Source: an uncultured bacterium (GTDB lineage Bacteria > Eisenbacteria > RBG-16-71-46 > CAIMUX01 > WJJG01). Taken from it: DNA of 64,000 nt. The notes under the pieces were generated by a model. The model had not been told where the DNA came from and ran no database searches. It saw nothing but the letters and a program-made list of their open reading frames with translations. Below, piece after piece: positions 4,765 through 24,508 of the stretch. The translations under genes were made by a program, and so were the position numbers. Position 1 is the first letter of the stretch. Each line of letters begins with the position of its first letter. Location of the stretch: positions 7,724 through 71,723 of the forward strand of contig CAZPGB010000006.1 of NCBI GenBank assembly GCA_964585945.1. Reading direction: 5' to 3'.

Positions 4765-5670
4765 ATGAAGGCGATCACGTTCCAGGACTACCAGGCGCGC
4801 ATGCTGCGGGTGCTGGTCCACATTCAAGAGAACCTGGACCGGGACCCCGGTCTGGAGGAGCTCGCGCGGGTGGCCCACTTCTCGCCCTACCACTTCCACC
4901 GCGTGTTCCGCGGGATGGTGGGGGAGTCGGTCAAGGCGCACCTGCGCCGCATTCGCCTGGAACGCGCGGCCCTGCGTCTGAAGCACGGCGCGGGGTCGAT
5001 CACCGATGTCGCGCTGGAGGCCGGTTACGAGACGCACGAGGCCTTCACCCGGGCCTTTCGCGCCTTGATGGGCCAATCGCCCTCCGAGTACCGCGCCCGG
5101 CAACGCGCCGAGCTGCAAGCGGCCGCCCCGAGCGGCGTCCACTACGCACCGGACTGCCGGGTGCTCGCGTTTCAGCCCCTAACCACCGGAGGAGAACCCA
5201 TGGACGTGAACATCGAGACCATGCCGCCGCGCCGCGTGGCCTTCGTGCGCCACATCGGACCCTATGCGCAGTGCGGACCCGCCTGGCGGACCCTGTGCGG
5301 CCGGCTGGGTCCGCTGGGCCGGCTGGGTCCGCAGACCGAGTTCTGGGGCCTGTGCCACGATGACCCCGAAGTGACGTCCCCCGAGCACCTCCGCTACGAC
5401 GCCTGTGTGCCGGTCGACGAGGGCTTCCAGGCCGACGGAGAGGTGGGCGTGCAGGTCGTCGAAGGCGGTGAGTACGCCGTCACCATGCACCGGGGTGCCC
5501 ACGAGAACCTGGGGCAAACCTATGCGCGGCTATGCGGTGAGTGGATTCCGCGCAGCGGACGCGCGGTGCGCGCGGCCCCGAGCATCGAGGTCTACCTGAA
5601 CGATCCTCAGCAGACCCCTCCGGACCAACTGCTGACCCGGATTCACATGCCATTGGAGCCGATGGAGTAG
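4765..5670 (+). CDS. AraC family transcriptional regulator with C-terminal GyrI-like effector-binding domain
   Basis: AraC HTH motifs (HFSPYHFHRVFR, ITDVALEAGYETHEAFTRAFR) followed by a GyrI-like domain (RVAFVRHIGPY...EVYLND). ATG at 4765 after CAGGAGGG. The long upstream part of ORF 3919..5670 is antisense noise. Confidence 0.85.
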   Translation: MKAITFQDYQARMLRVLVHIQENLDRDPGLEELARVAHFSPYHFHRVFRGMVGESVKAHLRRIRLERAALRLKHGAGSITDVALEAGYETHEAFTRAFRALMGQSPSEYRARQRAELQAAAPSGVHYAPDCRVLAFQPLTTGGEPMDVNIETMPPRRVAFVRHIGPYAQCGPAWRTLCGRLGPLGRLGPQTEFWGLCHDDPEVTSPEHLRYDACVPVDEGFQADGEVGVQVVEGGEYAVTMHRGAHENLGQTYARLCGEWIPRSGRAVRAAPSIEVYLNDPQQTPPDQLLTRIHMPLEPME

Positions 5671-5761
5671 ACGCCGAGCCCAGCGGGGGTACGGGACCCG
5701 TCGACCTGGGCTGCACGAGCGGCGCGCCGGCCTCGCTTGCGCGTCGGCGCGCCGGTTGCAG

Positions 5762-6805
5762 CTAGTCGAAGTGGGCGTTGATCAGCGGCGTCCAGCGCAG
5801 CCCGCGGGGATTGTTGCCGGCGTAGTTGAGCAGACCGAGCTGCATGCCGTGCAGCTCGTCGGCGTAGTTGACCAGTCCGATGGTCAGACCGTGAACCTCG
5901 TCGCGGAAACGGGTCACGGCGGCCGCGCCGAAGCCCTCCAGCCGCTCGCCCCACAGGTATCCACCCGCGAGGTGGGCGCCGGTCATCGTCTCGGCTCGGA
6001 TGCCGCCTGCCGTGGCCAGGAGACCCTGAGTCTCGTCGCCGCCCAGCCCCAGCCCGCTCAGGAACAGGCCCTGCAAGCGGTGGCCGCCCGCCCCCAGGCC
6101 GGCCACGAAGATGCCGGTCATGTCGTGGCCGCCCATGCCGAGGCCCGCGGTGAAGATGCCGGTCATGTCGTGGCCGCCCATACCGAGGCCGGCGGTGAAG
6201 ATGCCGGTCATGTCGTGGCCGCCCATACCGAGGCCCGCGGTGAAGATGCCGGTCATGTCGTGGCCGCCCATGCCGAGGCCCGCGGTGAAGATGCCGGTCA
6301 TGTCGTGGCCGCCCATGCCCAAGCCCGCCGCGCAGAGACCCGTGATGTCGCTGCCGCCCACGCCGAGACCGGCCACGAAAGCTCCGTCCATCCGGTTCGC
6401 GCCCATGCCCAGTCCAGCGGCGCCGAGCCCGGTGAAATGCCCGGAGCTGAAGCCAAAGAGGCCCACCGCGACGCCCTCGATGTCCGGCTCGCCTGTCCCG
6501 ACCACCGAGAGGTACGCGCCCGAGATCCGATCGCCGGTGTTGCCGCCCAGGCCGAGCACCAGGCCCTCGTAGACCGCGCCCGGATTGCGGCCCGGCTTCC
6601 AGAGCGTGAGGTTCAGCCCCGAGATCCGCGCCACGCGACGATCGCTCCAGTTGAAGCGCAACCCGGTGAATTCCCTGCTGTTGCCGAAAGAGATGCCGTA
6701 GCTCTCGCTGGGCAGCTCCAGCGTCTGGGCGCTGGCGTGAACCGCCACCAGCGCTGCCAAGCACCCGAACAGGCGCCCGGCCGTCCCTCCGATTCCGCCA
6801 CGCAT
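5762..6805 (-). CDS. secreted glycine-rich tandem-repeat protein (15-residue GHDMTGIFTAGLGMG repeats; C-terminal GLVNYA/GLLNYA motifs)
   Basis: ATG (cat at 6803-6805) with a G-rich RBS. Signal peptide LAALVAVHASAQ. Five near-identical 15-aa repeats. Its C-terminus resembles the repeat region of the caspase-domain protein at 14517..16703. Confidence 0.6.
   Translation of the reverse strand: MRGGIGGTAGRLFGCLAALVAVHASAQTLELPSESYGISFGNSREFTGLRFNWSDRRVARISGLNLTLWKPGRNPGAVYEGLVLGLGGNTGDRISGAYLSVVGTGEPDIEGVAVGLFGFSSGHFTGLGAAGLGMGANRMDGAFVAGLGVGGSDITGLCAAGLGMGGHDMTGIFTAGLGMGGHDMTGIFTAGLGMGGHDMTGIFTAGLGMGGHDMTGIFTAGLGMGGHDMTGIFVAGLGAGGHRLQGLFLSGLGLGGDETQGLLATAGGIRAETMTGAHLAGGYLWGERLEGFGAAAVTRFRDEVHGLTIGLVNYADELHGMQLGLLNYAGNNPRGLRWTPLINAHFD
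6113..6337 (-). repeat. five tandem 45-bp near-perfect direct repeats (gccggtcatgtcgtggccgcccatgccgaggcccgcggtgaagat) inside CDS 5762..6805
   Basis: Read directly from the sequence. Units start at 6113, 6158, 6203, 6248 and 6293, with single-base differences. Degenerate copies extend to both sides. Confidence 0.9.
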
Positions 6806-7043
6806 GGATGTCCCCCCGGAAAGGTGTTGAGTCCGTACGACCGTCCAACGGGTGTAACGCTCCCTGTCGACGTAGACGAATGGGGTCCGGGGAAGGTTGC
6901 CCGCGCTCCCGCGAGACCCGACCCGAATAGGGTGTGCGCCGAACGGTACGTGTGACAGAATGGACGGTCGCGTCGTGAGCCATGCATCGACGCGGGCGTG
7001 ACGCGGACACTGCTGAACGGCGTGGAACCGAAAGGGGGACCAG

Positions 7044-8318
7044 ATGGAGGGCGTGCTGAGGAAGGCGACTCACCGAGCGAGGCCGCTGGCGGCTGTCCTG
7101 GGTCTACTAGGGCTCCTGTGGAGCGCTTCACCCGTCCTGGCCGGGGAAATCGTCATGGTCGATGGCGTCCCCCACGTCCGCAATCCGGCCGAGCCGCCCG
7201 AGGGCGTCGAGACCATGGAGCTCGAGGAACTCTGGCGAGCCGGGGGTGAGTCCGACGAGGAGACGCTCTTCGGGGTCATTGTTCAGGCGGTCTCGGACGA
7301 GGAGGGCAATCTCTATCTGCTCGACATGCAGCTCTCCGAGGTTCACGTCTTCGGTCCCGACGGGGCGAAGAAGGGCACGCTCAGCCGTCAGGGCGAGGGG
7401 CCCGGCGAGGTGCGCAATCCTTCCGACATGTTCTTCATGCCCGACGGCAGCCTCGGTCTGGTCCAGACGTTTCCGGGCAAGGTGATCAAGGTGAACCTCG
7501 ATGGCACACCCGCCGGCACCATCACGATGGGGGGCAACGATCCCACCCAGGGCGGCTTCGTCGCGGTGATCGATGGGCAGTGCCGCGATGGGCACATGGT
7601 CTTCGCCGGCGTCAACATCGTGCCCGGCGAGACGCAGCTTCAGCAGACACGCAAGAGCTTCCTGGCCAGCTTCACTCAAGAAGGCGCCGAGCTGACGCGC
7701 TACTGGGAGCACAGCCAGTTCTTCGACTTCGCCGATCTGCGGACCGACGAGCGCGATCAGTACAACGTCTTCCCCCGGCGCTGGACGTTGGGCGCCGAGG
7801 GCCGGGTCTACGCCGCCACCGAGCGCGACGCTTACAAGATCAGCATCTTCGCCCAGGACGGCACCCTCGAGCGCGTGATCGAGCGGGAATTCGAGAACCG
7901 GAAACGCACCGAGGAGGAGATGGGTACCTACCGGCGGATCGCACAGGCGCAGGTGGCCAATCTTCCGGGAGAGCCCAAGGTCGAGATCGCCGACACGCCC
8001 GAGGCGATCCAGTCGGTCGAGCTCTGGAACAACGGCTCGATCTGGGTCACCAATGCCCGCGGCAACCACGATCAGCCCGAGGGGATCATGGCGACCTACG
8101 ACGTGTTCGACCCCAAGGGCCACTTCGTGAAGCAGGTCGCGGTCGCCTGCGACGCCGACGGAAAGGACGACGCACTGCTGCGGGTCGGCTCCGATCGCAT
8201 GGTTCTGATCACCGGGCTGCTGCCGGCCATCATGTCGATGCAGGGCGGGGGTGCGGCGGCGACCGGCGATGAGGAGCCGGCGCCGATGGAGGTCGTCTGC
8301 TACCGGATCAAGAGCTAG
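7044..8318 (+). CDS. secreted hypothetical protein (possible beta-propeller fold)
   Basis: RBS AAAGGGGGA before the ATG at 7044. Signal peptide [19 protein letters not shown]. Repeated Gly/Asp-rich beta-strand-like segments. No catalytic motif recognised. Confidence 0.55.
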
Positions 8319-11858: not shown

Positions 11859-12716
11859 TCAGCGTTGCCATCCGAACCGCTCCACCATGGTCCGGTAGCC
11901 GGGCTCGGATCCCTCCGGATAGCGCGCCTTCCAGCGCCGGTAGATCGCGCGCAAGCGGTCCGGAGAAGCATCCTCCTCCAGCAGGGGCGCCAGCGTCGAT
12001 AGGAGGAAGTCGGAGTCGGCATAGCTGAAGTAGGCCCACGAGAGAATGGGGCTCGCGCTCCAGCGCGCCTGATAGACGCGGTCGCCGTCGGACGCCAGCA
12101 TGGCGATCAGGTGCTGTTCACCGTCGATGAAGAGCGAGAGCCACTGCACCGCCCAGCGGCGCAGGAGATCGGCGCTGCTGCGGTTGAGGATCACGTCGAC
12201 CCCGCTCACGTCCGCGGGCTCGTAGACCTGCACCGCCAAGCGCACCCCGCGTCGAACCGCGGCGCGAATCTCATCCTCGAGCTGGCGCAAGGGCTCGGGA
12301 AAGAGATCCAGGAACCCGACCTCGCGGCTACCCCTCAGCATCTGCCGGCACCGGCTGTAGACCTGGTCCACCGTCTGCAACGCGTAGACCCGACTGTCGT
12401 CGGGTGAGCACCCCAGTTCCCGCACCGCTTCGGCCACCTGGGCCCGTTGCTCCTGAAACCGATGGGCCATCTGCTCGAGCAACTCATCCGGGGGAACCGC
12501 TCGGCACAGGCGGGCGTCTCCGTCGTCCACGAGGATGGCGCCCTTGGCCTGCAGGGAAGCCAGGGCTTTGTAGGTGTTCGTCTTCGACCGGCCGATCCCC
12601 TTGGAGATCTTGTAGCCGGTGGCAGGGGAGTGCTGGATGAGAAAGACGTAGATTTCGGCCTCGAGCTGGGTGAGCCCGATGTCGCGGAAGAGACGCACGC
12701 ATTCACTCGATCCCAT
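11859..12716 (-). CDS. TrmB-family winged-helix transcriptional regulator (paralogue 1)
   Basis: N-terminal TrmB HTH: IGLTQLEAEIYVFLIQHSPATGYKISKGIGRSKTNTYKALASLQAKGAI. Start taken at the internal Met (MGSSE); ORF start 12773 is the alternative. 34-40% identical over its full length to the 13301..14170 protein. Confidence 0.65.
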   Translation of the reverse strand: MGSSECVRLFRDIGLTQLEAEIYVFLIQHSPATGYKISKGIGRSKTNTYKALASLQAKGAILVDDGDARLCRAVPPDELLEQMAHRFQEQRAQVAEAVRELGCSPDDSRVYALQTVDQVYSRCRQMLRGSREVGFLDLFPEPLRQLEDEIRAAVRRGVRLAVQVYEPADVSGVDVILNRSSADLLRRWAVQWLSLFIDGEQHLIAMLASDGDRVYQARWSASPILSWAYFSYADSDFLLSTLAPLLEEDASPDRLRAIYRRWKARYPEGSEPGYRTMVERFGWQR

Positions 12717-12929
12717 GGCGCTGCCCCTATCGGATGGTCTCACGGGTCGATGGGATTGCCAGCGCGAAGCCACGATGGTGGCGACTCTACACCGTGATGC
12801 GGTTGGCCAGAAGGGTGGAAGTGGAGGGGGAGGGAGCCGTCTCGACCAGAGATCGGCCGGCCGGGCGATTCCCGGCGTGGGCGCGACCCCGCGCTCACGC
12901 GACGTCCGCCGCGCGCACGGGGGGGGACG

Positions 12930-13300: not shown

Positions 13301-14170
13301 TCACGTGGAATTCCCTGCACTGCCTGCGAAACGTTGCTGCATATCTCGAAAGCCGTTGGAAATGAAAGCCGGGAAGGCCTCCGTCCAATGGCGATACTCC
13401 TCGCGCATCTCGGCGCTGCCGGCGCCGGCCTCCATCAGGTTGACCAGATCATTGGCCAGCAGCGTCCACTTCGCGTAGCTGGCCTGGCCCCAGGAGAGCA
13501 GCAGGCTGGCCGTCCACACCCCCTGGTGCAATCGCTCCTCGCTGCGGTCGAGGGCGGCCAGCAGGCTTTCGCGCCCGTCGGTGAAGACCGACATCCAGGA
13601 GATGGGCAGCATCTGCTCGGTCTGCTCGCTGCCCACCGCCACCGTGGTGCGCACCCCCGGAATCTGCGTCGGCTCGTATGCCATCAGCAAGACGCGCACA
13701 CCCCGGGCCGCGGCCTTGCGGATGTCTTCCCGAAGCTGTGCGAGCGGTCCGGGAAACAGGTCCAGCACGGCGATCGAGCGGCACTCGGCCAACATGATCC
13801 GGGCGCGCTCGAAGACCTGGGCGGCCGTGGTCAGACGGTAGACGCGCTCGTCGCTCTCGGACGGGATCAGGTCGCGCAACGATGCGCTGGCTTCCTGCCG
13901 CTGCCGGCCGAAGTCGCGCTCCAACCGGTCGAGCAGCTCCTCGGGCGCAATCGCCCGGCATTGACGCCCTTCGGCGTCATCGACGACCACCGCGCCGCGG
14001 GCCTGGAGAGAGGCCAGGGTCTTGTAGGTCGCGCCCTGGGTACGGCCGATCGCCTTGGCGATCGCGTATCCGGTGGCGGGTGAGTGCTGCACGAGGTGAA
14101 CGTAAACCTCGGCCTCGACTCGCGTAAACCCTAGTTTTTCAATGGCTTTCACGCCCGCCTCGGTGCTCAA
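13301..14170 (-). CDS. TrmB-family winged-helix transcriptional regulator (paralogue 2)
   Basis: TrmB HTH: LGFTRVEAEVYVHLVQHSPATGYAIAKAIGRTQGATYKTLASLQARGAV. TTG start at 14170 with GGAGG 3 nt upstream. Confidence 0.7.
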   Translation of the reverse strand: MSTEAGVKAIEKLGFTRVEAEVYVHLVQHSPATGYAIAKAIGRTQGATYKTLASLQARGAVVVDDAEGRQCRAIAPEELLDRLERDFGRQRQEASASLRDLIPSESDERVYRLTTAAQVFERARIMLAECRSIAVLDLFPGPLAQLREDIRKAAARGVRVLLMAYEPTQIPGVRTTVAVGSEQTEQMLPISWMSVFTDGRESLLAALDRSEERLHQGVWTASLLLSWGQASYAKWTLLANDLVNLMEAGAGSAEMREEYRHWTEAFPAFISNGFRDMQQRFAGSAGNST

Positions 14171-14516: not shown

Positions 14517-16703
14517 CTAGAACTGGATCCCCACGTAGTAGCCCGGCCACACGCGCACCCAGGTGCGGTCGCTCTTCTCGTCGTGCCAGAGGTCGCCGCC
14601 CACCAGGTCGCCGCCGTCGTTGCGCCGCGAGGTGAAGACGTTGACCGTGGCGCCGGCCGTGAGGGCCAGGCGCGGCGCGATCCGCCAGCCGAAGCCCACG
14701 CGGCCCTTGTTCAGCAAGTGCAGGTCGCGGTCGGATCGCTGGTCGCCCTCGCGCTCGTCCTCGAAGATGTAGTAGGAGAGCGCCTCCACCGTGCCGAAGA
14801 CCGACCCGCTCAGCGGCACGTGGGCGCCCCAGCCGAAACCGGCCAGCCACCGCTCGTTCTCTCCCGGTGACTCGACGCCCCCGGCGAAGATCGAGTAGAT
14901 GCTGCGGTTGCCGAGCTGCACGCCGACCATCGGGCCGCCGGCGTCGGTGTGCCACACGGCGGGGCGATGCCGTCCCCGTTGCACCAGGCTGAGCACCCCG
15001 ACCGGAGCGCCGGCGACATCTTGGGCGACGTTGAGGACGCCGATCTGCGCGCCCGAGACCGTGCGCGCCACATTGACCACGCCGATCTGCGCACCTTCGG
15101 CGTGGCCACTCACGTTGACGACGGAGAGCTGGAGTCCCCGCAAGGAAGGGGCGTAGTTGCCCAGCCCGCTGGCCTGCACGCCTTCGCAACGACCCAGGCT
15201 GATGCTGGCCAAGCCGGCCCCCTGGAAGAAGCCGACATCACCTTCCACGACGTTGAGCGCCCCCCACTGCATGCCCTGGAATGCGCCGCCGATGGAGTTG
15301 GCCAAACCCGCCCATTGGATCGCGCGCACATCCCCGCGGACACGGTTGATCAGACCCGAGAACTGCGCCCCTTCGAGGTCGCCCTCGACCAGATTGAGGC
15401 CGCCGGCGATCTGCAGGCCGTCGACGTTGCCCAGGTTCCAGTTGCCGACGTAGCCGATCTCGAAGCCGTTGACACCCGCGTTGCGTCCGAGGGTCAGATT
15501 GAGTGAGATGTCGCTCACGGTGCGCTCCGCCTCGGGCCCCGCGGTGCTCATGCCCGGCCACAGGCTGGCGGTGAAGTCTCGGTGAAGGACCTGGGTCTCC
15601 TCGATCGTTGCCTCGGGGGTGGGTGGGAACTCGCCGCGCGCGGCGGTCGCCTCGGGGGTCATCGGGATCAGATCGGCCATCTCCAGCCGCGTGAGCCCTT
15701 CCTCGGGCAGGTGGATCGCAGCGGTGTAGTAGCGACCGTCGTGGTCGAGAAAGACGCGGTAGTCGCCGGCATCCAAGCCCAGCTCGATGTGCCGTCCCTG
15801 GGGCTTGTGCAGCTCCACCACCAGAGCGTCCTGCGCGTCGCGCACGTGGAGGCGACCCTGCACCGATTCGGTCAGCACCAATCCGGCGCTGCTCGTGCGC
15901 AGATCGGTCATCACCAGATCGCCGGCGCCGACCATCTGGATGTCGTACCCGGGATGCTGGGGTCCGCTGAGCGTGCCCTCGGTGCGGGCGAGGGTGGTGT
16001 GAAAGGCGAACTGGTAAGCCTCGTTCAGCGTCACGCGCCGGTCCTGGGTGACGTCGGCCGCTCCGCGCAAACCGGTGACCAGGGCGTGGGTGAAGAAGCT
16101 GCCGCGGATGCGGTCCGATTCCTGCGCCGCCTCGTCGTGGGAGCTGGAGGTGAGGAACGCATGGCCCTTCATCTTGGCCGACGCGTCCATCAGAAACGGC
16201 GGTCGCCGGCGGCCCCCTTTCAGCCGCGTGAACGCGCCCGAGGCGCAGCTATCCAGGATGATGATCCGCACGTCGGCCGACACGGCGTTCACCGCCGCGC
16301 GCAAGTCGGTATAGGACAGGAGCTCCTCGCCCAGCCGCAATCCTTGGTCGTCGGAGTGTCCGGAGTAGTAGAGAATCAACTCCACGCGGCTGTGCTCTCG
16401 GGCGGCCGCGGCGATGCGGCCCTCGAGCTCGCCGAGCGACTGTCGCAGCGCCGCCGGTCCGGCGTCGAGCAGCAGCAGCCGGTCTTCGGGGTCGACGCCG
16501 CCCAGGTTCTCGAATACCCGCGCGACCGTCTGCGCGTCGGTGGCGGCGTAGTGCAGCGTGACCCGATTCGCCCCGCCGTCGTTGTTGCCCAGCGCCAGGA
16601 GGAAGCGGCGCACGGAGAAGACCTCGTCCTGTTCCTGGGCGCCGGCCGGCCCCCAGAGGGCCGCCCACAGCAGGGCCGACGCGATGCAGAGCAGACGCTT
16701 CAT
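14517..16703 (-). CDS. exported peptidase C14 (caspase/orthocaspase-like) domain protein with C-terminal Gly-rich 14-residue repeat domain
   Basis: Signal peptide MKRLLCIASALLWAALWGPAGAQE. Catalytic dyad context ILYYSGHS and IIILDSCASG. The C-terminal half carries repeats GAQIGVVNVARTVS / GAQIGVLNVAQDVA / GLQLSVVNVSGHAE. The start overlaps the upstream gene stop (ATGA at 16700-16703). Confidence 0.8.
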   Translation of the reverse strand: MKRLLCIASALLWAALWGPAGAQEQDEVFSVRRFLLALGNNDGGANRVTLHYAATDAQTVARVFENLGGVDPEDRLLLLDAGPAALRQSLGELEGRIAAAAREHSRVELILYYSGHSDDQGLRLGEELLSYTDLRAAVNAVSADVRIIILDSCASGAFTRLKGGRRRPPFLMDASAKMKGHAFLTSSSHDEAAQESDRIRGSFFTHALVTGLRGAADVTQDRRVTLNEAYQFAFHTTLARTEGTLSGPQHPGYDIQMVGAGDLVMTDLRTSSAGLVLTESVQGRLHVRDAQDALVVELHKPQGRHIELGLDAGDYRVFLDHDGRYYTAAIHLPEEGLTRLEMADLIPMTPEATAARGEFPPTPEATIEETQVLHRDFTASLWPGMSTAGPEAERTVSDISLNLTLGRNAGVNGFEIGYVGNWNLGNVDGLQIAGGLNLVEGDLEGAQFSGLINRVRGDVRAIQWAGLANSIGGAFQGMQWGALNVVEGDVGFFQGAGLASISLGRCEGVQASGLGNYAPSLRGLQLSVVNVSGHAEGAQIGVVNVARTVSGAQIGVLNVAQDVAGAPVGVLSLVQRGRHRPAVWHTDAGGPMVGVQLGNRSIYSIFAGGVESPGENERWLAGFGWGAHVPLSGSVFGTVEALSYYIFEDEREGDQRSDRDLHLLNKGRVGFGWRIAPRLALTAGATVNVFTSRRNDGGDLVGGDLWHDEKSDRTWVRVWPGYYVGIQF

Positions 16704-17533
16704 GGGCGCGACTCCTTCTTGCGGAGTATCCGGGCGTGTTGGTCGAGGCCGTCGGGCAGCGCGAGCAGATCGTGGGCCGCCCGCTCGGGTGATCGGGCCA
16801 GCTCCCGCGCGGCGGCCAGCACGGCGGCCGCGTCGATCGGACCCTCGGATGTGATCAGAAAGAAGCGCTCGAAGTCGGGCGCATCGTCCAGTTCGTAGGC
16901 ATGGGGCAGAAGCTGCTCGCCGCCCTCGGCGAGCTGGGTCGACCCCCGGGCGGTGGCGGGGAAGTGAAGCACCACCTCGCCCCGGCCGTCGATCGAGAGG
17001 ATCACCGCGTGGCGCGCCGCCAGCGGCACGACGCCGAGCTGCAGCACATCGCCCGCGCGGGCGACGTCCCCATCGGCCAGGGCGTCGAACCCTTCGCCGG
17101 CGCGGCGGTAGAGCCGCAGATGGGTCTCGCCCTTGGCACGGGTCGTCTCGGTCGCGGTTGCGGCGACGGAAGGCGCCTCCGGGACCGGCGGCGTCCGATC
17201 CGGTCGCACCACCAGCAGCAGCAGGACGGCCGCCGCGGCCACGGCCGGCGCCAGCAGCATCCAGCGGGGCGCCTGTCGCGCGGGAGCCGGACCTTCGGCG
17301 GCAGGCGCCGCATCGGCGGCATCGACCCGGCGGGTGACCTCGGCCGCGAAGACCTCGGGCGGCGTGGCCTCCAGGATCTCCTCGTTCGACCGGTGCAGCG
17401 ACTCGAAGCGCTCGCGCAACCGCCGGTCGGTCCGCAAGCGATGAGCCAGCGCCTCCTGCTCGTCCGGCGGCAGCTCCCCCAGCGCATACAGCTCCAGCAG
17501 ATAGGTGGGGACGGCGTTGGGCGCATCGGTCAT
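16700..17533 (-). CDS. putative transmembrane anti-sigma factor
   Basis: N-terminal anti-sigma-like region (YLLELYALGELPPDEQEALAHRL). Single TM (WMLLAPAVAAAAVLLLLVV). An extracytoplasmic domain of about 130 aa. 4-nt overlap with the sigma gene upstream and the caspase gene downstream. Confidence 0.6.
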   Translation of the reverse strand: MTDAPNAVPTYLLELYALGELPPDEQEALAHRLRTDRRLRERFESLHRSNEEILEATPPEVFAAEVTRRVDAADAAPAAEGPAPARQAPRWMLLAPAVAAAAVLLLLVVRPDRTPPVPEAPSVAATATETTRAKGETHLRLYRRAGEGFDALADGDVARAGDVLQLGVVPLAARHAVILSIDGRGEVVLHFPATARGSTQLAEGGEQLLPHAYELDDAPDFERFFLITSEGPIDAAAVLAAARELARSPERAAHDLLALPDGLDQHARILRKKESRP

Positions 17534-18015
17534 GATCCTGCTCCTTCCATCTCGAGCGCCCGGGCGCGCAGCATGCGGAGGCGCTTGCGCACGCCCGACA
17601 CCGAGAGACCCACTTCCCGCGCCACCTGCTCGAGCGTCAGGCCGTCGCGGTAGTGCAGCACGGCGATGAGCCGCGTCGAGGGTCGCTCGCGGCGGAAGAT
17701 CCGATCCAGGCGCAGGCTGGCGAAGATGCCCGCCTCGCTGTCGGAGGCGCAGGCGATGCGCTGGAGCAGCGCGTCGTCGGCGTCTTCAGGATGCCGGCGC
17801 TGAGAGCGCAAGATGTTCAGGCACACATGGGTCGCCATCCGCATCAGCAGTCCCGCCGGCGCGCTGTCGGTCAGGCGGTCCTGGTTGCGCACGAGCTGGA
17901 CGAACACGTCCTGCGCTGCTTCCATCGCCCTCTCCTCGTTGCGCAGCATCTCCCGGCAACGGCGGACCACCATCGGCCCGTAGCGCCGGTACCATGCCTC
18001 GACATCGATCGGCAC
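17530..18015 (-). CDS. ECF (group IV) RNA polymerase sigma factor
   Basis: Sigma70 region 2 (AAQDVFVQLVRNQDRL) and region 4 HTH (LTLEQVAREVGLSVSGVRKRL). GTG start at 18015 after GCAGGAGGGAGG. Confidence 0.85.
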   Translation of the reverse strand: MPIDVEAWYRRYGPMVVRRCREMLRNEERAMEAAQDVFVQLVRNQDRLTDSAPAGLLMRMATHVCLNILRSQRRHPEDADDALLQRIACASDSEAGIFASLRLDRIFRRERPSTRLIAVLHYRDGLTLEQVAREVGLSVSGVRKRLRMLRARALEMEGAGS

Positions 18016-19796: not shown

Positions 19797-20432
19797 CTAC
19801 TCCTTCCCGGACCCCAGATAGGACCGCTCGATGCCCATCACCACCTTGAGCGCGGTCGAGGCCATGCCCAGACCCACGCCCAGAATGATCGCCCGCTTCG
19901 CCACCAGGTTGGGGTTGTCCAGAATCCAGCGGGCGATCGCGGGGATGCCCAGGGAGGCGCCCTCGTCGAGCCGGCCGATCATGACGATGACCGCGGCGAT
20001 GAGCAGAATGGTTGCATCGACGCTGCGCGTGCGGAAGGCGCGGAAAGCCGCCGAGGCCAGATAGAAGGCCAGCAGCGAGAACATCGTCGCCTGCACCGGC
20101 AGCAGGATGGCGTTGAAGAGGTCCTGATACAGCGTGCCTTCGCCCCGTCCGCCGATGAAACCGGCCAGGAGCATCACCGTCAGCCCGACCAGCGCGGCCA
20201 GGCTGTAGACCCAGTCCTTGTGCCGCTTGCGCTCGGGCCCCGAACGCTGCACGCGGTGGGTGTGGCGCTGGATGACGCTGGCCAGTCCCAGGATGATCGA
20301 GAAGGCGTAGACGATCTGCATGTAGTCGTTGATGCGGTCGTAGTAGGGCAGGAACGCGGGCACGAAGTACTGGATGGCCATGAAGCTGCCGGCCAGGAAG
20401 CAGATCGTCAGCGGTACGCGCGTCCTCATCAT
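19797..20432 (-). CDS. uncharacterised polytopic membrane protein (module gene B)
   Basis: About 5 TM helices. ATG at 20432 overlaps the stop of gene A (ATGA). The ORF track start 20471 would overlap gene A by 43 nt. Confidence 0.55.
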   Translation of the reverse strand: MMRTRVPLTICFLAGSFMAIQYFVPAFLPYYDRINDYMQIVYAFSIILGLASVIQRHTHRVQRSGPERKRHKDWVYSLAALVGLTVMLLAGFIGGRGEGTLYQDLFNAILLPVQATMFSLLAFYLASAAFRAFRTRSVDATILLIAAVIVMIGRLDEGASLGIPAIARWILDNPNLVAKRAIILGVGLGMASTALKVVMGIERSYLGSGKE

Positions 20433-21679
20433 CCGCCCGACCCCCTCACGCGCAAGATCTCGTTGACCCAAGCGATCGGCTCACCGCGCACCAGCGCGCC
20501 GGCGGTCATCAGGGCCACGCCGACGATGATCATCAGAATGCAGAGCAGCTTGTAGTAGTCCTGCCCTTTCAGGCTGCCCAGCAGCGTCGGCTCGCGGCCG
20601 ATGTAGGCGCTGGCCGCGTAGAGCTCCTCGCCGATGATGGTGTAGTCGCAGGCGGTGACGAAGAAGGGTAGCTGCGTGATGGCGTCGGTGCCGGCGATCT
20701 GGATCGCCCCCACCGAGGCGCCGGTCTCGGCCAGTACGAGCGACTCGGCGTAGAACATCCCCAGCAGCAGATTGGCCCCGGGCCGCTCGCGCACCATCGT
20801 GCCGCAGACGGCCGCCGCGTAGGTGAACTGGTCGTTGGTGACGAAGTAGATGTCCTCGGGCCGGTAGTTGTGGGGGAAGCCGGCGGCGATGAAGGCCTCC
20901 TTGACGACGTCCTGCGTAACCGGATAGACGATCGGGTCGCGGTTGGGAATCAGGATGCGCGCCTGGTAGCGGGCGATCTTCTTGGCCACCTCGGAGAGGA
21001 TGTTGAGCGAGGCGATCGTGGCTACGTCCTGGATGGTGCTGATGCCGGGAATGTAGAGTGTCGGCCGGCCCATCTCGGTGCAGCGCCCGACGGCCTCGTC
21101 GATGGCGTCGAGGCCCGCGATGCGGCGGATCTTGAGCTCGCGACCCCGGCGGGCGACGTGGATGAAGCCCAGGATCATCGCCACGAAGATGATGACCGCC
21201 ACGAGCGTGTTGAGCTTGTTCGTGTAGAACCACTGCCGCGCGGGCGCCACCGGGGCCGAGGGCTCCGTGCTCGCCCGCATGCCGTCGGGACCATGCGTCT
21301 CGATCATGTAGACGTAGCTGCGGCCGGGGCGCAGTCCGGTGTCGTCGTAGCTGAAGCTCTCGGTGCGCAGGCGGGCCGGGAACGACTTCACCACGGCGAA
21401 GCTGTCCACCCCGGGATCCTGCCGCAGGATGACGTAACGGTCGACGGTGGGCGCATCCATCGCGTCACCGGGCGCGCGCCCGAACTGGATGCGCAGCGCG
21501 GTGCCGGCGTCGAGCGGCTTGTCTTCCACGGAGAAACCGGTGACGGGGGCGACGGCCGATGCAACTGCAGCAAGGGGGAGTGCGAGCGCGAGCAGCACCA
21601 AGGCGATGATCTCGGATGTCCGCTGTGTCCGTGCTAGGCCCAAGCCGGTGCGTTCCACGCGCCCCTCGTCCTCCACCAA
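20429..21679 (-). CDS. uncharacterised membrane protein with N-terminal signal/TM, FN3-like beta domain, TM, conserved about 220-aa domain, C-terminal TM (module gene A)
   Basis: TTG/GTG start region at 21659-21679 (RBS GAGGACGAGGGG before the GTG at 21661), so the start is uncertain. Beta-rich segment RYVILRQDPGVDSFAVVKSF...YVYMIETHGPDG. Hydrophobic helices VAVIIFVAMILGFIHV and LLCILMIIVGVALMTAGALV. Confidence 0.55.
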   Translation of the reverse strand: MVEDEGRVERTGLGLARTQRTSEIIALVLLALALPLAAVASAVAPVTGFSVEDKPLDAGTALRIQFGRAPGDAMDAPTVDRYVILRQDPGVDSFAVVKSFPARLRTESFSYDDTGLRPGRSYVYMIETHGPDGMRASTEPSAPVAPARQWFYTNKLNTLVAVIIFVAMILGFIHVARRGRELKIRRIAGLDAIDEAVGRCTEMGRPTLYIPGISTIQDVATIASLNILSEVAKKIARYQARILIPNRDPIVYPVTQDVVKEAFIAAGFPHNYRPEDIYFVTNDQFTYAAAVCGTMVRERPGANLLLGMFYAESLVLAETGASVGAIQIAGTDAITQLPFFVTACDYTIIGEELYAASAYIGREPTLLGSLKGQDYYKLLCILMIIVGVALMTAGALVRGEPIAWVNEILRVRGSGG

Positions 21680-21790: not shown

Positions 21791-24508
21791 TCAGCGCAGC
21801 ACCAACACGCGTGCCCGGGCCGCGCCGCGTGCGCTCTGCCAGTGGAGCCAGTAGACGCCGCCCGGCACGAGATGCCCGCTTCGGTCGTGTCCGTCCCAGT
21901 GGAGGCGGTGCGCGCCGGGGGCCGCGTGCGCGCCGTCGAGAAGCGTAACGATACGCCGGCCGTCGGGACCAAAAAGGGCGAGGGTGCCGCGCGCCTGGGC
22001 GGGCAGGTGGAGCCGGATCGAGGCGCCCGACAGCACCGGGTTGGGGGAGATCTCCAGCCGGGGACCCGCTGCGCGGGCGGTGGGCCCGGCGGGGTCCACC
22101 GCCGGACCTCTCACCCCGGAGGTCGACGGCACACCGGTGAAGGACAGATCGTCGAGATACCAGCCGCGGCGCACGACGTTGCGGTCCGAGCCGAACTGCC
22201 ATCGCAGGCGCACCCACTGTCCACACAGCGCGTCCAGCGCGAAGGTGCGCTCCACCCAGGCGCCGGTCGTGCCGGTGAAGGCCTGCTGGCCGCCGATCGG
22301 GTTGCAGTTGCCGTCGACGATGCCGTCGTAGCCCTCGGCGGGCGCGACCAGGCTCCAGCTCTGGCCGCCGTCGGTCGATGCGCGCAGGTGTCCGCCGTCG
22401 CTGGCCGCCTCGTTCTCATACCAGGTCCAGCAGCGCAGCGTGGCCGCCTCGAAGTGGACCAGACTGAGCGGCGGCGCGTCGAGGCGATCGTCGGCGCAGG
22501 CGTCGTAGTCCTCGCCCAGCACCGTGCCCCAGACCCGGCTCCCTGAGTGGGCGCCGGCCATGGCGTCGCTGCCCCAGGCCCACTCGCCGAACGGGTCGAG
22601 CCCTTCGCCGGAGGTCTCGAAGTCCCAGACGTCGGCCAGGGTGAAGTCGACGCCGTGCGCGGCCTCGCCCTGCGCCAAGAACAAGGTGCGTCCGCGGGGC
22701 ATCCGGTCGGGCAGCGAGGCGCAGAGCGCGAGGGTGCCCGGCCAGACCGGATCGAGGACGTAGACGCCGTCGGGGCCGGTGAGCGCGCTGGCCGTCTGTC
22801 CCTCGATCTCCACCCTGGCGCCCGGCAGGGGTGCGCCGCCGGGCGAGCGCACCGTGCCGCTGAGGCTGCCGGCCACGAGCGGATCGAGCATCAGGTCGAG
22901 CGCCACGACGGCGCCGCCGGTGACGCTCACCATCACCGTGTCGGGCCAGCAGCCGGACGTCCCGGCGACCAGGGTGTACGCGCCGGGAAAGATCTCGCCG
23001 AAGGCATACTGGCCGTCGGCTCCGGTCACCTGCACCGGATACCCGGTGCCCACCAGACGCAGCGTCGTGTTCGACGGATCGCCGCCCCCCGCGATCGACA
23101 CGGTGCCCTGAATGCCGCCGGGGAGGTCCTGCACCTGGGCGAGCTGGGCGGCGGCGATGGCGTTGGTCACCGTGATCTGGCGCCACAGCCAAGGGTCCAA
23201 CCGGTCGACGCGGTCGCAGAACCGGTGGTAGCAGGGGTTGCTGTCCCACTCGTTCTCGATCGACAGCACGGCGGGAAAGCCGTGGTTGTGAAACGGCACG
23301 TGATCGGAGCCGAAGCCTTCGCCGGGATAGCGGTAGATGGTGAGCCCGGCGTGGTCGACCGCGACCTGCTCGAGCAGATCCATCATCCAGACCGAGCTCG
23401 TGCCCTCGTAGAACCCCTCGAGCCAGAGGTCCTCGCCCTGGGGGTCGTGGTAGCCGGTCATGTCCATGTTGAAGACGCCGCGGATGTCCATCCCCTGCAG
23501 CTCGGCCTCCGACGCGAAGTGCTCGCTGCCGTGCAGGCCCTGCTCCTCGGCGGAGAAGCAGATGAAGATGAGGGTGTAGTCGGTCGTCACGGGCGCCAGC
23601 AGGCGCGCGATCTCCAGGACGGCCGCGGCGCCCGAGCCGTTGTCGTCGGCGCCGGGGGCCAGGTTCTGCGGGTCGGGCGAGGTCGAGTCGAGGTGGCCGC
23701 CGACGATGTAGATGCGGTCGGGGTCGACCGCGCCCTCCTTGATGGCGACCACGTTCTTCAGCTCGTACGACATGTAGGTGAACGGATCGAACCAGGCCGT
23801 CAGGCCGGCCGCTTCGAAGGCGGCCTTGGCGTAGGCGCAGGCCAGCTCCATCTGGGGCGTCCAGGAGTGGCGCGTCTGCAGCTCGGTCGACAGATAGTCG
23901 AGGTCGCCGGACATCCGGTCCGCACGCACCGCCCCGGCGAGCGCGCTCCAGAGGTCCCGTGCGGCTCCGGGGAGCGTGCTCATGGGCTCGCCGCGGTCGA
24001 TCGCCTCGGGCGGTCGCCGGGGCACGACGCGCTGGGCCCGGCCTCCGGGGCCCGCCTTGAAGGGCCAGTCGCCCGGGGCTAGCTGCAGCAGGGCCACCGC
24101 GCGGTCCGCATCCAGGACCAGCGGGTCGCGGGGGGGAGGACCGGCGTGGGCAGCGCCGCCGGCGGACCAGCCCGCGGGCCAGACGCCGGCGCGCAGCGCC
24201 TCGAGCTCGCGGTGCGGCACGAGGAGATAGACCGATCCCTCCCGGTGTCCGCCCACCGCCGTGACGGCCGGATCGTCCAGCCACCTGCTGCCGGCCGGCA
24301 GCAGGCCCAGCGAGCGGCCGGCAAAGGTGTGCAGCACTCGCCAGTCGGGCACGTCGCCGGCGGATCCACCCTCCCAAGATGCTACAATAAAATCGTTTAC
24401 GCTTGAATCTTCAGGCTCGGCGCGAGACCCGTCCGCGCTCGCGGCGATGGCGGCCAGGGTCAGCGCAAAGGCCCATGATAGGGCGAGTGTCTTTCGGATC
24501 CAGACCAT
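21791..24508 (-). CDS. secreted M28 family zinc aminopeptidase with C-terminal beta-sandwich/sorting-type domain
   Basis: Signal peptide. M28 motifs IVGGHLDS, DDNGSGAAAVLE, FSAEEQGLHGS, GSDHVPF. CarbopepD_reg-like repeats. A C-terminal segment of about 80 aa resembles FlgD-Ig/T9SS-type C-terminal domains. Confidence 0.8.
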   Translation of the reverse strand: MVWIRKTLALSWAFALTLAAIAASADGSRAEPEDSSVNDFIVASWEGGSAGDVPDWRVLHTFAGRSLGLLPAGSRWLDDPAVTAVGGHREGSVYLLVPHRELEALRAGVWPAGWSAGGAAHAGPPPRDPLVLDADRAVALLQLAPGDWPFKAGPGGRAQRVVPRRPPEAIDRGEPMSTLPGAARDLWSALAGAVRADRMSGDLDYLSTELQTRHSWTPQMELACAYAKAAFEAAGLTAWFDPFTYMSYELKNVVAIKEGAVDPDRIYIVGGHLDSTSPDPQNLAPGADDNGSGAAAVLEIARLLAPVTTDYTLIFICFSAEEQGLHGSEHFASEAELQGMDIRGVFNMDMTGYHDPQGEDLWLEGFYEGTSSVWMMDLLEQVAVDHAGLTIYRYPGEGFGSDHVPFHNHGFPAVLSIENEWDSNPCYHRFCDRVDRLDPWLWRQITVTNAIAAAQLAQVQDLPGGIQGTVSIAGGGDPSNTTLRLVGTGYPVQVTGADGQYAFGEIFPGAYTLVAGTSGCWPDTVMVSVTGGAVVALDLMLDPLVAGSLSGTVRSPGGAPLPGARVEIEGQTASALTGPDGVYVLDPVWPGTLALCASLPDRMPRGRTLFLAQGEAAHGVDFTLADVWDFETSGEGLDPFGEWAWGSDAMAGAHSGSRVWGTVLGEDYDACADDRLDAPPLSLVHFEAATLRCWTWYENEAASDGGHLRASTDGGQSWSLVAPAEGYDGIVDGNCNPIGGQQAFTGTTGAWVERTFALDALCGQWVRLRWQFGSDRNVVRRGWYLDDLSFTGVPSTSGVRGPAVDPAGPTARAAGPRLEISPNPVLSGASIRLHLPAQARGTLALFGPDGRRIVTLLDGAHAAPGAHRLHWDGHDRSGHLVPGGVYWLHWQSARGAARARVLVLR

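Follow-up and report, generated by a model that had tools for sequence, protein, structure and literature searches.

A Gly-rich exported repeat protein of an uncultured Eisenbacteria bacterium: its 45-bp tandem array, its family and its probable beta-solenoid fold

What kind of protein is built by a coding sequence that repeats part of its own DNA almost letter for letter, and what would change in that protein when the number of repeats changes? We addressed this question for a gene located in a stretch of 64,000 nucleotides, hereafter the window, from contig CAZPGB010000006.1 (assembly GCA_964585945.1) of an uncultured bacterium of the Eisenbacteria lineage. The gene lies on the minus strand at 5762..6805 and encodes a Gly-rich exported protein of 347 amino acids (aa), part of which is specified by a tandem array of 45-bp units. 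The analyses described below make it probable that this is a Sec-exported envelope protein made of one capped beta-solenoid rod, that whole coils are gained and lost through the array, and that a caspase-domain protein encoded in the same window employs the same solenoid as a spacer.

The repeat array and the protein it encodes

Between 6107 and 6367, Tandem Repeats Finder (TRF) detected 5.8 copies of a 45-bp period, matching at 91% and free of indels. A search with the 45-bp unit allowing up to 3 mismatches returned 4 matches (6122-6166, 6167-6211, 6212-6256 and 6257-6301) versus 0 in 100 shuffles, which delimits the core of the array:

6122-6301, minus strand: array core of four 45-bp units, each encoding the identical MTGIFTAGLGMGGHD, with 0-2 synonymous differences

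Compared pairwise, the four core units differ by 0, 1 or 2 bases, all synonymous and found at two positions (GGC/GGT and GCG/GCC), and their DNA identity is 96-100%. The array is degenerate at its edges, where the flanking units read ITGLCAAGLGMGGHD and MTGIFVAGLGAGGHR, one at either end, and have 78-80% DNA identity to the adjacent core unit; from one unit to the next across the array, the identity runs 0.80, 0.98, 0.98, 0.96 and 0.78. The original prediction, made from the sequence alone, had described five near-identical 45-bp units at 6113-6337. The array is indeed real and in frame, but this register (225 bp) holds four exact units and one at about 87%, and not five units each encoding GHDMTGIFTAGLGMG. 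The recent expansion that it also proposed is borne out by the homogeneous central units and the diverged edges. Such a pattern reads as the usual signature of unequal exchange, and the four central units appear to be recent duplicates or gene-conversion products.

The gene and the parts of its product were assigned as follows:

5762..6805, minus strand: coding sequence (stop codon at 5762-5764) of the exported repeat protein of 347 aa, assigned from the family hidden Markov model (HMM; E 1e-99), the homologues and an AlphaFold2 (AF2) model with a predicted local distance difference test score (pLDDT) of 92.5
6728..6805, minus strand: signal peptide, residues 1-26, MRGGIGGTAGRLFGCLAALVAVHASA followed by Q, assigned from the sequence and from an AF2 helix at residues 6-25 that lies outside the fold
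6437..6727, minus strand: conserved N-terminal module, residues 27-123, LELPxxxYGISFGNSxEFTGLRFNWSDRxVxRIxGLNLTLWKP...
6032..6436, minus strand: nine regular Gly-rich 15-aa repeats, residues 124-258, consensus x-T-G-[ILV]-F-x-A-G-L-G-M-G-G-x-D
5810..5896, minus strand: two LA_2272-type 14-aa repeats, residues 304-332, VHGLTIGLVNYADE / LHGMQLGLLNYAGNN, with the NF047436 match at residues 306-332 and a 42-bp TRF repeat
5765..5809, minus strand: conserved C-terminal strand, read as a cap, residues 333-347, PRGLRWTPLINAHFD, family motif NPxGLKVLPLxNxxF

The signal peptide can be read as of the Sec/signal peptidase I type, without a convincing lipobox, and the homologues carry comparable A-x-A or G-S cleavage regions and no conserved Cys. 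A lipoprotein reading of the LFGC motif was considered and rejected: the only Cys, C15, lies ahead of the hydrophobic core, and the region of cleavage reads HASA followed by Q. The mature chain keeps a 15-residue period up to residue 303, after which come two 14-residue repeats and a short tail, and overall it amounts to about 21 repeats of 15 aa. In the AF2 model the N-terminal module would form a cap and irregular initial coils that nonetheless keep the 15-aa period, with short strands every 15 residues and pLDDT above 93 from residue 31. In an alignment of 117 sequences, G37, G41, G48, R50 and D55 of this module are invariant and W69 is present in at least 90%; at the other end P340 and N343 are invariant, and AF2 places a strand at residues 338-345. 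The C-terminal stretch GLVNYADELHGMQLGLLNYAGN to which the original prediction had drawn attention is present at residues 310-331, and is covered by a 2-copy 42-bp DNA repeat at 5818-5903 (TRF).

Could the gene or its array be an artefact, either a spurious frame in DNA of 69% guanine plus cytosine (GC) or a mis-assembled repeat? Several long open reading frames (ORFs) overlap here on both strands, the exact protein is not on the public record, and a 225-bp repeat is longer than a typical short read. The first part of this explanation is refuted by hundreds of homologues that share the conserved termini in the frame of the 347-aa protein only; the AF2 confidence also speaks against it. As for the array, the same unit recurs in orthologues, in arrays that differ from it in length, and synonymous variants mark individual units, which opposes a simple collapse and does not by itself fix the exact count. 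We therefore hold an artefact to be highly improbable. The overlapping ORFs at 5643-7131 (476, 399, 172 and 153 aa, on both strands) read the repeat as Pro/Arg-rich or His/Arg-rich periodic peptides; they are by-products of the 69% GC and of the repeat, not genes, and an automatic caller could choose the wrong frame among them.

A large family whose repeat numbers differ by whole units

In order to place the protein, we searched 5.8 billion proteins and obtained 304 homologues at E<=1e-3, whose identity to it does not exceed about 50%. When 1.84 billion cluster representatives were searched with a profile, the family grew to 456 matches with E up to 1e-30, 3140 with E up to 1e-10 and 8327 with E up to 1e-3; the profile matches listed are 199-644 aa long. 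Source names include Krumholzibacteriia, Aminicenantales, Rhodothermaceae, Latescibacterota, Fibrobacteraceae/Fibrobacterota, Calditrichia/Calditrichota, Gemmatimonadota and Ignavibacteria. A signal peptide is common to the homologues, as are modules at the N-terminus (SLDLPxxGxGISFGNSxxFTGLRFNxxDxxVxRIxGxNxTLWxP) and at the C-terminus (GLTIGLVNYAxxLxGVQIGLLNxxxxNPxGLKVLPLxNxxF), with Gly-rich repeats running between them. The repeat period is 16 residues in most members and 15 in a minority that includes the 347-aa protein.

No Pfam model matched the protein at E<=1, and none matched any of the 117 relatives. The sole NCBIfam match at cutoff was to LA_2272_repeat (NF047436), a marginal pass with 25.1 bits (E 1.1e-5) against a curated cutoff of 25. 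This model matches 106 of the 117 aligned family members at E<=0.01. The LA_2272/LA_2273 lipoprotein model (NF047435) did not match the protein and matched one of the 117 members weakly. The protein is not a member of the VC2662 family either (NF047437, an equivalog; 9.1 bits, E 0.81, cutoff 140); the VC2662 model gave partial matches only to family members (best E 5.8e-13), which indicates a related repeat and not equivalog membership.

The segment that reaches the LA_2272 cutoff consists of two canonical repeats of the G-x-Q-[IVL]-G-[LIV]-[LIV]-N type, and the Gly-rich repeats align to G-x-Q-x-A-G-x-x-N repeats at the profile level only. Both groups are exported proteins of didermic bacteria. 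However, most of the 347-aa protein is a Gly-rich 15-aa variant, with GLGMGG in place of GLxN, that falls outside the 30-position NCBIfam model, and it has family-specific N- and C-terminal modules and no lipobox. We therefore read its family as a Gly-rich offshoot of the LA_2272-repeat superfamily, with its own start module and C-terminal cap. LA_2272 of Leptospira is a bioinformatically predicted outer-membrane protein with a beta-helix match in fold recognition (PMC2387172, PMC5348505), and VC2662 is a hypothetical protein enriched in a V. cholerae ompU mutant, in which its deletion left the ompU-mutant phenotype unaltered (PMC10865864). In the literature on LA_2272-type repeat proteins, we found nothing experimental on function, LA_2272 appearing only in bioinformatic lists. 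The LA_2272-type repeat, defined in silico, was thus known already; what is new is the Gly-rich variant, with a confidently predicted fold lacking a solved analogue.

The exact 347-aa protein is absent from the public gene index, and no relative closer than 46% identity was found in genome contigs. In metagenome contigs, an exact-pattern scan with the degenerate 45-bp unit gave no match and a protein-based scan reached 50% identity at best. With no relative above about 50% identity in the collections searched, repeat copy number was compared between orthologues:

L001, a Fibrobacteraceae metagenome-assembled genome (MAG), 69% GC: unit MTG[IV]F[AT]AGLGMGG[HGD]D
L016 and L017, which encode an identical protein, 69% and 68% GC: unit as in L001
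L015, 54% GC: unit as in L001

Arrays of about 9-13 units are found in L016, L015 and L001, TRF detecting 13.5 copies of a 45-bp unit in the last. The distance between the GISFGN and GVQIGLLN anchors is 283 aa in the window, 298 in L016, 328 in L015 and 358 in L001, so that these three closest orthologues exceed the window protein by exactly 1, 3 and 5 units of 15 aa, respectively. In the 16-aa subfamily the same distance clusters at 248, 264, 280, 296 and 312 aa. Since these differences are integer numbers of units, whole coils seem to have been gained and lost during evolution. The two features expected of such whole-unit gain and loss (concerted evolution), namely a centre more alike than the edges and integer-unit differences between orthologues, are thus both observed.

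How old is the array? Among units with similar peptides, identical residues use the same codon in 48% of cases in L015, 71% in L016 and 81% in L001. The low value in L015 indicates that its synonymous sites are saturated and its repeats old, and hence that the homogeneity of the window array is recent. Genomes ranging from 54 to 69% GC encode a strongly conserved unit peptide, which seems to be both old and under purifying selection. What appears to be fresh in the source genome is only the last duplication or homogenisation of about four coils, the unit peptide itself being apparently ancient and conserved across genomes. Runs of identical units also occur elsewhere: P0095, from a Rhodothermaceae MAG (L037:5001-6017), carries GGLGVGTGGNLTGIAL three times, and P0013 and P0003 also have identical or near-identical unit runs. 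Local repeat homogenisation thus looks recurrent across the family, in the 15-aa and 16-aa subfamilies alike.

The DNA of the L001 array was also compared with that of the window. The L001 consensus unit (array gene at 5923-7179) is identical to the window unit (6122-6301) at 43 of 45 positions, and the best single unit at 44 of 45, and the match extends to GCG and CTC, which are not preferred codons; codon usage gives it a probability of about 2e-4. The flanks of the two genes show 33-50% protein identity and saturated synonymous sites (52-62% same codon), and no synteny was found between the window and L001 around the gene. Unit identity to the window is 39/45 in L016 and 32/45 in L015, which is ordinary synonymous divergence. 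Nucleotide-level constraint, exchange of array DNA or coincidence are possible explanations of the close L001 match. Horizontal transfer of the array was considered for it and not adopted, L016 and L015 showing ordinary divergence.

Repeat number can thus vary, as the original prediction had anticipated. It had gone on to propose antigenic or length variation, and length variation agrees with the whole-unit differences between orthologues. Antigenic variation received no support. Another reading takes the array as a contingency locus that makes a surface antigen vary antigenically or in phase, frequent slippage generating population heterogeneity that helps evade phage or predators. This would account for the near-identical tandem units and for unit numbers that differ between orthologues, and it fits the term 'surface repeat' used by NCBIfam. 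But a phase-variable contingency locus carries a repeat that shifts the frame or alters the promoter; here the unit is 15 codons inside the ORF, so its gain or loss alters the length of the protein and cannot turn the gene off. Conservation of the unit peptide across genomes of 54-69% GC is evidence of purifying and not diversifying selection, and the topology of a fused relative, described below, points to the periplasm. We consider such a locus unlikely.

The predicted fold

AF2 was run on the 117-sequence alignment and returned a confident model (predicted template modelling score 0.83, with the pLDDT of 92.5 given above), in which low confidence is confined to one internal loop (residues 276-284). 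Between residues 119 and 271, the model is composed of 13-residue strands separated by 2-residue breaks with an exact 15-residue period, and pLDDT is about 98 in the Gly-rich repeat region; the strands before this segment are shorter, with the same period. The breaks fall on the G-L of a nearly invariant GLG motif, a position that in the model would suit a core-facing corner and would be atypical for a hairpin turn.

We then compared the model with solved structures. Foldseek against the PDB gave 8 matches at E<=10, the best with E 2.3 and a template modelling (TM) score of 0.24, and none of them was a barrel; these weak matches are to solenoid proteins, namely RsaA, LpxD, GlmU and a beta-helix glycosidase. 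Against BFVD, nothing significant was obtained, the weak matches being to hemagglutinin-repeat and tail-fibre proteins. A sequence-profile search of the PDB gave only spurious matches to mitoribosomal uS11, with E above 0.004.

Our reading of the model is a narrow beta-solenoid with caps, in which every repeat makes one coil, about 21 in all. It is based on the strict periodicity, the position of the breaks on the G-L of the GLG motif, the lack of barrel matches and the precedent of the ice-nucleation solenoid. The ice-nucleation protein has been modelled as a narrow solenoid, capped at its C-terminus, to which each 16-residue unit contributes one coil; its genes vary in the number of repeats (PMC10727499). 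The 347-aa protein has in common with InaZ/PbINP a long tandem array of very similar 15-16-residue units; the likeness is one of structural analogy, with no sequence similarity. The ice-nucleation protein differs in having about 65 coils, versus about 21 here, and in its TxT/SxT/Tyr ladders and N-terminal membrane domain, which the 347-aa protein lacks: its period is 15, MTGIFTAGLGMGGHD contains no TxT or SxT, and its N-terminus consists of the signal peptide and starter coils.

This comparison raises another explanation, in which the protein would present a self-assembling or ligand-ordering surface like that of ice-nucleation or antifreeze solenoids or functional amyloids, repeat number tuning the size of the active face. 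The 15-16-residue coil is similar to the 16-residue ice-nucleation coil (PMC10727499), the units are highly regular, and the family is widespread in environmental bacteria. The conserved residues are, however, Gly, Leu and Ala, which form no ordered polar face, and the ladders are missing; conserved caps at both ends oppose end-to-end polymerisation, and neither the window nor six homologue loci contain secretion or nucleator partner genes nearby. We regard this explanation as improbable. Another Gly-rich parallel beta structure is the RTX beta-roll, and G-M-G-G-H-D-M-T-G superficially resembles one GGxGxDxUx nonapeptide; the period of 15, not 9 or 18, differs, and the second Gly and a hydrophobic position are missing. 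An RTX-like calcium-binding reading of GMGGHD was rejected, given this misfit of period and motif, the lack of a PF00353 match and an Asp that is not conserved in the wider family (GAGxxL).

The repeats might instead form an integral outer-membrane beta-barrel, a meander of roughly 20 strands in which each 15-aa repeat would be a transmembrane strand plus a tight turn and the C-terminal Phe a signal for the beta-barrel assembly machinery. The 13-residue strands with 2-residue breaks can be read as hairpins, many family members end in ...N-x-x-F, and the related caspase protein described below does have an outer-membrane barrel. That protein provided a positive control: its C-terminus readily matched barrels, with 777 Foldseek matches led by outer-membrane barrels, against the 8 barrel-free matches of the 347-aa protein, whose model contains no recognisable closed antiparallel barrel. 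In addition, the residues outside the strands are the G-L of GLG, and a hairpin turn of 2 residues does not typically contain Leu; a barrel would place the polar H-D pair mid-strand; and the C-terminal Phe is often followed by other residues (D, RR, GDS or ER), unlike a strict beta-signal. A barrel is in our view very unlikely.

Under the preferred reading of a capped solenoid, each 15-residue Gly-rich repeat would make one coil, at 0.48 nm per coil the rod would be roughly 10 nm long, and the 45-bp array would be the DNA image of its most regular coils. Unequal recombination or replication slippage between in-frame, near-identical units would add or remove whole coils, changing the length of the rod and leaving the fold undisturbed.

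The caspase-domain protein and the proposed place of the rod in the envelope

The second protein of interest in the window has three parts:

14517..16703, minus strand: 728-aa protein combining a caspase domain (Pfam Peptidase_C14, residues 33-217) with a solenoid and an outer-membrane barrel
14982..15518, minus strand: solenoid repeats of this protein, residues about 396-574, 14-16 aa, of the G-x-Q-x-A-G-x-x-N type, assigned from AF2 and hhalign
14523..14972, minus strand: C-terminal small antiparallel beta-barrel, residues about 578-727, ending ...YYVGIQF, assigned with Foldseek

The original prediction stated that one repeat domain exists both free and fused to a protease, and three profile comparisons agree with it. 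The LA_2272_repeat model passes its cutoff in the caspase protein as well, with 30 bits. Out of 619 stop-to-stop ORFs of the window, the HMM of the 347-aa family matched only that protein (1e-99) and the caspase ORF (1.9e-12), in the latter with one domain over the Gly repeats and a second, low-bias domain over RGLQLSVVNVSGHAEGAQIGVVNVARTVSGAQIGVLNVAQD. Alignment of the two family alignments (A2 for the 347-aa protein, A3 for the caspase protein) with hhalign gave 99.0% probability, E 6e-18 and 18% identity over 212 columns. A direct BLASTP comparison was weak (E 0.002), yet aligned the correct segments, and the C-terminal 14-aa repeats of the 347-aa protein align to GAQIGVVNVARTVSGAQIGVLNVAQD of the caspase protein. 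The two repeat domains thus appear to be homologous, with an ancient relation as judged by 18% profile identity, and not recent paralogues. The gap between the two genes is 7.7 kb and not the 15.3 kb first reported.

The C-terminal half of the caspase protein has 168 homologues of its own, and in some solenoid-plus-barrel relatives other N-terminal domains are found, including STN (PF07660) and CarboxypepD_reg-like (PF13715). Its AF2 model (from alignment A3, pLDDT 95.3) shows repeats with two short strands each, followed by 8-9 long antiparallel strands. Foldseek matched this C-terminus in the PDB to the 8-stranded barrels NspA, OmpA, OmpW, OmpX and Ail and to OprF-N (probability 0.97-1.0, E 1e-3 to 1e-2). 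For the caspase half, the family comprises >2000 proteins, mostly of 510-520 aa and without a solenoid; among the best 120 homologues, 15 match the HMM of the 347-aa family and carry the solenoid module, and 3 more, two of them named partial, match the solenoid-plus-barrel profile only. By its distribution, the solenoid seems to behave as an optional spacer between effector domain and barrel anchor. The 347-aa protein shares with the solenoid-plus-barrel proteins a homologous solenoid, a signal peptide and the same phyla; it differs in having neither a barrel nor an N-terminal effector domain, in its short conserved cap, and in its more Gly-rich and regular repeats.

This architecture bears on localisation. 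Outer-membrane barrels have both their N- and C-termini on the periplasmic side, and those of 8 strands have no pore for translocation. The effector domain and solenoid of the caspase protein would therefore lie in the periplasm, and the free solenoid is probably also on the periplasmic side of the outer membrane. In the caspase protein the solenoid would serve as a rigid spacer between the protease domain and the 8-stranded outer-membrane barrel anchor, and the 347-aa protein most likely acts as a rigid rod or spacer of the envelope, with the number of repeats determining its length.

Several points weigh against this picture. The proposed one-coil-per-repeat geometry comes from DSSP periodicity, the missing barrel matches and the analogy with the 16-residue ice-nucleation solenoid, and the model resembles no solved structure, as its best PDB match indicates. 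The assembled copy number could be wrong, given that the 225-bp near-perfect repeat exceeds short-read length. NCBIfam labels the repeat 'surface' and LA_2272 is predicted to be an outer-membrane protein, while we infer the periplasmic placement. Finally, the gene stands alone in the six homologue loci too, and no neighbour is shared across them and the window, which gives no clue to function.

The gene of the 347-aa protein is solitary, being convergent with an AraC/GyrI-like regulator gene and divergent from the gene of a secreted beta-propeller protein, and no promoter or terminator consensus was found around it. The product of the divergent gene (7044-8318, plus strand), a secreted protein of 424 aa, weakly matches the 6-bladed beta-propeller family DUF5128. 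This gene could share a regulatory region with that of the 347-aa protein; it is not conserved beside the homologues in the other genomes examined.

The gene of the caspase-solenoid-barrel protein is the last of a three-gene operon with overlapping stop and start codons (14517-18015, minus strand), in which it is preceded by the genes of an extracytoplasmic function (ECF) sigma factor (17530..18015) and of a 277-aa protein (16700..17533). The 277-aa protein has no Pfam match and a hydrophobic stretch resembling a membrane helix, and is read, from its sequence, as anti-sigma-like. The order of sigma factor, protein of about 264 aa and caspase recurs in two unrelated metagenome contigs (L039:2174-5534 and L040:2171-5507). 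This suggests a conserved signalling module in which the outer-membrane-anchored caspase may act on the anti-sigma factor.

A further step is to see the rod as a length-adjustable periplasmic ruler or strut working in 0.48-nm steps, the barrel-fused form keeping the caspase at a fixed distance beneath the outer membrane, where it could process the co-encoded anti-sigma factor and so activate the ECF sigma factor. We hold this to be unlikely; if true, it would define a new element of envelope architecture and another way of activating ECF sigma factors, new as well, both resting on a beta-solenoid fold without a solved analogue.

Other genes lie in this part of the window. Two TrmB-family regulator genes, which may be paralogues (11859-12773 and 13301-14170, both minus strand), are located between a thioredoxin-rhodanese gene and the caspase operon. 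On the same strand, a DUF6754 protein gene (20429-21679; E 7e-114) adjoins that of a 905-aa M28 peptidase with CarboxypepD_reg and MAM-like domains (21791-24508), the two adding to a cluster of envelope and secreted-protein genes.

If the function of the protein is merely structural, its history would be one of ordinary repeat-protein evolution. Even so, the family is large (hundreds of clusters at 50% identity), lacks both a Pfam model and a solved structure, and has a confident model of a narrow solenoid with 15-16 residues per predicted coil; it would offer a clean natural example of tandem DNA repeats setting the length of a rigid protein rod. The putative reuse of this rod as a spacer between caspase and barrel, in a conserved operon of ECF sigma factor and candidate anti-sigma factor, gives a concrete place in which to test what the rod is for.

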